A stretch of 64,000 nt of DNA, taken from assembly GCF_058153355.1 (NCBI RefSeq), contig NZ_CM177019.1; one strand, given 5' to 3'. How positions within the stretch are numbered: the first letter of the stretch is position 1; every line of letters starts with the position of its first letter. The position numbers and the translations under genes are program-made. Below, one piece after another: positions 61,820 through 62,150 of the stretch. A model generated the notes under the pieces. That model ran no database searches, was not told the origin of the DNA, and saw only the letters and a program-made list of their open reading frames with translations.

Positions 61820-62150
61820 TTAATACCCCGCCGTTAAATCATCCACCAAGCGCGAGTCGGATGCGCCGTACAACTCACCATCCGACCCAACCATAATGCT
61901 TTGCGTGCTGCCCATCGCCTCATTCAGCGCCACTTTCTGACCTTTTGCATCCAGCAGCTTGAGCGTATCCGGACTAAACCCTTTTCAACACGCAGCTCGT
62001 CCGGCAACCACTGATAGTGGAAACGAGGCGCATTGGTCGCTTCGGCAACATTCATTCCACAATTGATGCTGTTCACCACCATTTGCAGCACGGTAGTGAT
62101 GATCCAGCTACCGGTAACAAAGTGAGTACATAAAGGCCATACTGTCACGA
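61820..62150 (-). pseudogene. gamma-glutamyltranspeptidase (ggt-like) C-terminal fragment with frameshift
   Basis: Translation ...TGSWIITTVLQMVVNSINCGMNVAEATNAPRFHYQWLPDELRVEKG then, after a 1-nt frameshift near 61975, FSPDTLKLLDAKGQKVALNEAMGSTQSIMVGSDGELYGASDSRLVDDLTAGY*; the 5' part abuts the ISL3-family element. Confidence 0.7.

Follow-up and report, generated by a model that had tools for sequence, protein, structure and literature searches.

A frameshifted 3′ remnant of ggt at the end of the rikA cluster in an Escherichia coli island

How does the tail of a gamma-glutamyltransferase gene (ggt) come to lie between a PTE-family gene and an insertion sequence, and does it still do anything there? 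The question was raised by the first-pass annotation of a 64,000-nucleotide stretch of contig NZ_CM177019.1 (RefSeq assembly GCF_058153355.1), referred to here as the window. That annotation placed a ggt-like fragment near the window's end, described it as stranded between its two neighbors, and offered two origins for it: a decayed paralogue, or the remnant of an IS-mediated rearrangement. Features of the locus are collected in Table 1.

A tblastn search of the whole window with a K-12-type Ggt (581 codons, from locus L004) identifies minus-strand positions 61820-62118 as the last ~100 residues of the protein (joint E 2e-44). The alignment consists of two adjoining segments in different frames, with Ggt residues 527-580 at 61984-61823 (91% identity) and residues 477-529 at 62133-61975 (79% identity). 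No further Ggt-like segment with an E value below about 0.9 occurs in the 64-kb window. Once the frameshift is corrected, the resulting 99-residue peptide scores 72.7 bits against the Pfam family G_glu_transpept (PF01019, an Ntn-hydrolase family; cut-off 27), with the match limited to profile positions 420-509 of 512. The relic is about 90% identical to E. coli Ggt in amino acids and matches K-12 ggt at 272 of 295 nucleotides. The translated search thus upholds three earlier claims, namely that the minus strand encodes the C-terminal region of Ggt, that the reading frame is broken by a 1-nt shift, and that the upstream body of the gene is absent before the ISL3 element. The extent had been drawn too generously, since ggt homology stops at 62118 and not at 62150. 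What is left amounts to only 17% of ggt, the equivalents of V478-Y580 alone, and does not make up a complete Ggt precursor of ~580 residues with signal peptide, large subunit and small subunit. The fragment is a frameshifted, 5′-truncated ggt remnant adjoining an ISL3-family element.

Table 1. Coordinates of the ggt relic and its neighbors in the 64,000-nt window.
Feature	Position	Strand	Description
rikA, intact, DeoR-PfkB kinase	56399-57613	+	Window ORFs, match to Salmonella locus
GATase1-like gene, intact	57627-58385	+	Window ORFs
DMT transporter gene, internal stop	58442-59407	+	ORFs 58442-59050 and 59144-59407
IS2 in PTE gene	59473..60803	-	Approximate; left end inferred from known IS2 length
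PTE-family gene (STM3550 homologue), 3′ body	60804..61780	+	Last gene of rikA cluster; convergent with relic
G+C-rich hairpin, 12 pairs, then T-run	61788..61814	-	Terminator-like, between PTE and ggt stops
ggt relic	61820..62118	-	Ggt V478-Y580 plus stop TAA (61820-61822); 92% nt identity to E. coli ggt
Frameshift site	61982..61985	-	A4 run where ggt has A5; Ggt codon 526
12-bp in-frame deletion junction	62106..62112	-	Between two GGTAGC direct repeats
Spacer, not derived from ggt	62119..62141		23 bp between end of ggt homology and IS end
ISEc38-like element (ISL3 family), inactive	62142..63907	-	Plasmid ISEc38 copies and terminal inverted repeats
Beyond far IS end	63908..64000		No ggt; zinc-ribbon and inovirus-Gp2-family island genes follow in related genomes

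The relic carries more than one lesion. The frameshift is the loss of a single A from an A5 run, which changes GAAAAAGGG to GAAAAGGG and appears as a T-run at 61982-61985 on the plus strand. A second lesion, unmentioned in the first-pass annotation, is the 12-bp in-frame deletion. It removes four codons within S481-S485 (P482-S485 in the reading used here), among them those of Gly483 and Gly484. Residue 391 is a threonine in K-12-type Ggt, and a check of the numbering confirmed that Thr391 is not in the relic, which begins at residue 478. In the literature, Thr391 is the catalytic and autoprocessing nucleophile of Ggt, and in structural work on E. coli GGT, Gly483-Gly484 is the oxyanion-hole pair. 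Because Thr391 and everything else upstream of residue 478 are missing and Gly483-Gly484 are deleted, the relic is a non-functional, dead gene fragment. It contains no uninterrupted frame with a start codon and expression signals, and no promoter-like site was found in 61600-62300. The relic is also dispensable. In strain S931B, an ISEc23 element (IS66 family) is inserted inside it (7018-9841 of that locus), and in the O157:H7 strain F3113 the relic is missing together with the adjacent 40% of ISEc38.

The pattern of substitution agrees with decay. The pairwise dN/dS between the relic and K-12 ggt is 0.22. Taken alone, this value would point to a gene that had long been functional in a foreign lineage; such a reading was rejected on polarising the changes with eight outgroups, as the relic's branch then looks neutral. 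The relic's own branch carries 9 nonsynonymous and 5 synonymous changes and the E. coli branch 1 nonsynonymous and 4 synonymous, with 3 synonymous changes ambiguous. All nine replacements in the relic fall at positions where eight enterobacterial Ggt sequences show no variation, and its branch is compatible with neutral evolution. The changes on that branch, ~14 in 294 nt or roughly 5%, suggest an age of millions of years, to be taken as a rough guide and not as a measurement.

These observations bear on the idea that the relic was co-opted, whether to supply an RNA that targets ggt mRNA in antisense or as a decoy, to encode a small protein, or to offer a patch of homology for recombination with ggt. 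Such a role would suit its 92% identity to the ggt 3′ end over about 295 nt and its persistence in about half of E. coli genomes, and one Logan contig, in which the frameshift is removed by a patch identical to true ggt, could be read the same way. However, the lack of a promoter-like site, the neutral substitution pattern, and the independent deletions, IS insertion and outright loss seen in other lineages all argue against a retained function, and we find co-option scarcely credible. In the contig concerned (ERR10299219_1819, 3440-3850), the patch that equals true ggt spans about 15-70 nt and is flanked by stretches of 38 nt and 50 nt common to the relic and ggt. Every relic copy seen in a complete genome keeps the frameshift, and the best match to the ‘repaired’ allele covers 410 of its 411 nt at 98.8%. 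A repaired or ancestral allele was considered and rejected in view of the ggt-identical patch, its shared flanks, and the absence of the allele from all complete genomes. Most simply the contig is an assembly artefact, probably produced by paralogue switching in de Bruijn-graph assembly. At ~295 nt and 92% identity, the relic can cause reads of ggt to be mapped wrongly or de Bruijn-graph assemblies of the gene to go astray, and such contigs call for caution near repeated segments.

On its truncated side, the relic is followed by a short spacer and the ISL3-family element. The ends of the element had earlier been set at 62157 and 63882. Independent plasmid copies of ISEc38 align to positions 43/44-1807/1808 of window segment 62100-63950, and the termini form a 43-nt imperfect inverted repeat (81% complementary), which together move the ends to 62142 and 63907. 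Its transposase and inverted repeats place the element in the ISL3 family; the transposase reading frame (62192-63811) is broken by an internal stop, and the 8 bp on either side (aggccata and atgtgaag) do not form direct repeats. An intact transposase and an 8-bp target-site duplication, by which a simple and recent insertion is recognised, are both lacking. A copy of the window type occupies the same junction in about 2,500-2,800 genomes and is therefore an inherited, immobile copy. The 23-bp spacer at 62119-62141 is unique in the window and conserved in all other island copies aligned. Its derivation from rearranged ggt was rejected, as its alignment score falls within the range of shuffled sequence. 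The first-pass annotation had also left it open whether the gene resumes past the element, in 63882-64000. It does not, as tblastn detects no Ggt similarity in 63861-64000 (best E about 1).

A second question is whether the relic derives from the ggt gene of its own host. A ggt match is present in 5,425 of 5,426 complete E. coli genomes, and in about 2,740 genomes two places match the fragment query. The genome that best matches this locus is that of O121 strain 201805972. Its ggt is 1,743 nt long and intact, occupies the canonical position in yrhB-ggt-yhhA-ugpQ, and matches the relic at 274 of 295 nt; the record of this strain is collinear with the window only from about 56286 onward. The earlier expectation that the true ggt lies elsewhere on the chromosome therefore holds, both for this strain and for the genomes examined more widely. 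Island copies of the relic are 98.3-100% identical to one another and at most 92.5% identical to any E. coli ggt, with nothing between. Past the stop codon the E. coli ggt locus no longer aligns with them, and the downstream hairpin differs. Because of this gap and because homology ends at the stop codon, the relic is not a copy of the resident gene, which disposes of the decayed paralogue in the sense first proposed. A chimeric query joining the PTE 3′ end to a full-length ggt is covered at 80% or more in none of the 5,426 E. coli genomes, and therefore no intact island-borne ggt exists in this collection. As an observation in its own right, 1,301 of 5,428 records carry a ggt that is only 90-95% identical to that of K-12, more divergence than core genes of E. 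coli usually show, which may stem from recombination beside a variable slot.

The same comparisons weigh on a second account, in which the 3′ end of the resident E. coli ggt was duplicated by an intragenomic IS-mediated rearrangement and then decayed. E. coli ggt is indeed the nearest full-length relative of the relic among the matches listed (92.5%), and on a neutral scale the two branch lengths are roughly equal. Yet no E. coli ggt allele exceeds 92.5%, while relic copies stay within 98.3-100% of each other, and what immediately follows the stop codon bears no relation to the E. coli ggt locus but recurs in the E. albertii plasmid copy. The slot beside ggt in E. coli is moreover occupied by yhhZ-yrhA-yrhB and not by the rikA cluster, and therefore a duplication of the present locus cannot create the PTE/ggt junction. 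We consider this account very improbable.

The origin of that junction is best approached from the other side of the relic. The window carries genes for a DeoR-PfkB kinase, a GATase1-like protein, a DMT transporter and a PTE-family protein in the order of the rikA/STM3547-STM3550 cluster described in Salmonella (PMC13432705), and their ORFs are 80-92% identical in amino acids to the Salmonella locus. The cluster is partly dead in this genome, with a stop in the DMT gene and a PTE gene split by IS2, which separates the first ~21 codons (59410-59472) from the body. The split was missed in the first-pass annotation. Between the convergent PTE and ggt stops, the hairpin at 61788-61814 is oriented as a ggt terminator. 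It is kept in the E. albertii plasmid copy (7976-8002) despite five base changes, one of which is a compensatory G-C to A-T pair, and we predict that it may still serve as terminator of the rikA-PTE operon.

In Salmonella the same junction stands in a chromosomal setting. An S. enterica Infantis contig (PYJX01000248) reads gntR-yhhW-yhhX-yhhY-rikA-GATase-DMT-PTE, followed by a convergent ggt, with 44 bp between the PTE and ggt stop codons (39 bp in the window). This adjacency comes from one contig whose end cuts ggt, leaving its last 288 nt; the gene is presumed to be an ordinary, full-length chromosomal ggt. Given this tail-to-tail order, PTE and ggt meet in the window at a native chromosomal junction, and the fragment is not stranded beside the PTE gene as had been thought. 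The island cluster is 74-77% identical to the Salmonella cluster in nucleotides, which is orthologue-level divergence and not a recent import from Salmonella; the corresponding values against Salmonella ggt are 76% for the relic and 79% for K-12 ggt. Among the matches listed, the relic is most similar to E. coli ggt (92.5%); E. albertii and a further Escherichia species representative come next at 90%, ahead of Citrobacter at about 84%. The divergence is thus of the Escherichia level.

The contents of the yhhY-ggt interval vary between taxa. No cassette lies there in E. albertii, L008, C. youngae, Enterobacter and Kluyvera. In E. coli the interval contains yhhZ(tssD)-yrhA-yrhB, in some Citrobacter tssD/yrhB-like genes, and in Salmonella the rikA cluster. 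Judged by these contents, it is a cassette-swapping slot in Enterobacteriaceae.

A further copy of the arrangement is found on the E. albertii plasmid pEA17_1, which matches the PTE-plus-relic query at 94.5%. All four genes of its rikA cluster are intact and are, gene by gene, 96.5-98.2% identical in nucleotides to the E. coli island copy. The cluster is again followed by a ggt relic, more decayed than that of the window, which shares lineage-specific bases with it (including a Pro to Ser change) and has 12-nt and 13-nt deletions of its own. This relic breaks off at the equivalent of window position 61963, and no ISEc38 is present. Since the plasmid joins the same four genes to a relic that decayed separately, the attachment of relic to cluster must predate the split of the two lineages and be independent of the present ISEc38 junction.

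Taken together, these comparisons make it very likely that the relic began as the 3′ end of the ggt natively adjoining the rikA-GATase-DMT-PTE cluster on a chromosome, and that it moved with the cluster into a mobile island. Under this proposal, the cluster would have sat in the yhhY-ggt slot of an Escherichia-like chromosome, tail-to-tail with a full-length ggt. An IS-associated event would have mobilised ~4.5 kb, from about 100-325 bp upstream of rikA to ggt codon 478, and the segment would then have become cargo of the PAI/GI-cobU island and of plasmids, bounded by IS remnants. The ggt piece would have decayed neutrally through the frameshift, the 12-bp deletion and nine amino acid changes, and become fixed beside a dead ISEc38. 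The fragment's identity, lesions and distribution, the native junction in Salmonella and the separate relic in E. albertii are shown directly; which lineage was the donor, in what sequence the events took place, and what part IS elements played in excision and truncation are inferred. Of the two origins first suggested, an IS-associated rearrangement is thus the best explanation. The 23-bp spacer and the absent direct repeats count against it to the extent that they leave the truncating event unreconstructed.

Also weighing against the proposal, searches for the donor and for intermediates came up empty. A full-length ggt of the relic lineage beside the cluster was found in 0 of 5,426 E. coli genomes, and among 80 species loci in the matches listed (Salmonella not among them) none had a PTE gene within 6 kb, the downstream hairpin or the spacer. 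Two exact-pattern metagenome scans gave 0 hits to an undeleted or un-frameshifted member of the lineage, and a word-indexed protein search with the 99-residue peptide returned short partial Ggt entries alone and no full-length donor. At the other end of the segment, no yhhY relic was found upstream of rikA. The polarised substitution counts, for their part, fit a foreign Escherichia donor and an ancestral E. coli arrangement alike.

An alternative is that the relic decayed in situ, the island having once carried a second ggt, complete and functional (perhaps belonging to the cluster's pathway as its fifth gene), which ISEc38 then truncated inside E. coli. The pairwise dN/dS allows for some constrained period, the hairpin has the orientation of a ggt terminator, and the relic abuts an IS, all of which would be expected on this account. 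Nevertheless, none of the 5,426 genomes has an intact copy, and the E. albertii plasmid lineage likewise has only a 3′ relic, without ISEc38. In the window itself, 23 bp of unrelated sequence precede the IS end, the IS has no target duplication, and the polarised branch of the relic looks neutral. The adjacent ggt of Salmonella is, furthermore, an ordinary chromosomal gene in a conserved gntR-yhhWXY neighborhood. An in-situ origin thus appears unlikely.

The preferred reading, co-movement of the cluster with its neighboring ggt tail, can be extended more tentatively. The relic could be a molecular fossil of a cluster that was lifted from its yhhY-ggt slot several million years ago, in an Escherichia lineage that is extinct or has yet to be sampled, a possibility that we hold to be real but doubtful. 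If true, it would document how a chromosomal cassette turned into cargo of islands and plasmids, and the relic could serve as a clock. In a weaker variant, the relic and the resident ggt may occasionally undergo ectopic gene conversion.

The relic is ordinary, being present in thousands of E. coli genomes and already annotated there as a pseudogene. The PTE-plus-relic segment is found at a coverage of at least 80% in 2,565 of 5,426 complete E. coli genomes. PGAP labels the fragment ‘gamma-glutamyltransferase; frameshifted; incomplete; missing N-terminus’, beside an ‘ISL3 family transposase; internal stop’, with annotated examples in NZ_CP119441 (PWR57_RS14100) and NCTC9041 (EL151_RS08520). In CFT073 the copy lies at 2,336,306-2,338,156, inside PAI-CFT073-cobU, which spans 2,322,324-2,365,760 (PMC7545054; see also PMC3573123); the relic is mentioned in neither paper. 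On its own it is of little importance, as a dead fragment that pipelines already flag. Its value, a modest one, is as a marker of provenance, tracing the uncharacterised rikA-GATase-DMT-PTE cluster of the cobU island and of the E. albertii plasmid to a chromosomal locus beside ggt, as in Salmonella.

The wider surroundings of the cluster differ in this genome. Upstream, window 39500-56400 reads his-yefM/yoeB-plaP-sbcB-dacD-sbmC-yeeA-tmaR, then an intact IS110-family ISSso6 (ORF 55033-56208), and leads directly into rikA. The rikA cluster abuts cobU in typical strains; as it does not do so here, the island segment has been inverted or rearranged. In no complete E. coli genome is window 39500-64000 matched at a coverage of 80% or more, which suggests an IS-rich source of the Shigella/EIEC kind.

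Set beside known systems, the locus resembles each in part. Like the PGAP-annotated RefSeq pseudogene of PAI/GI-cobU, the window relic has identical sequence and junctions, agreeing over 441 nt (100% identity) with those of O121 strain 201805972 and NCTC9041, whereas its island is joined through ISSso6 to the yeeX/tmaR side and not to cobU. The adjoining element shares with annotated plasmid ISEc38 95.5% of its nucleotides, the domains DDE_Tnp_ISL3 (PF01610, 59.7 bits) and Zn_ribbon_ISL3 (PF14690, 29.2 bits), and the terminal inverted repeats; it differs in having an internal stop in its transposase and no 8-bp target duplication. Relative to E. coli Ggt, the relic shares homology with ~100 residues at the C-terminus of the small subunit, but it is frameshifted and lacks the signal peptide, large subunit, start codon and promoter. 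Finally, the window and the Salmonella locus have in common the gene order, the tail-to-tail PTE and ggt, and a short hairpin-containing spacer between them, although the window keeps the tail of ggt alone, in a mobile island bounded by IS elements.
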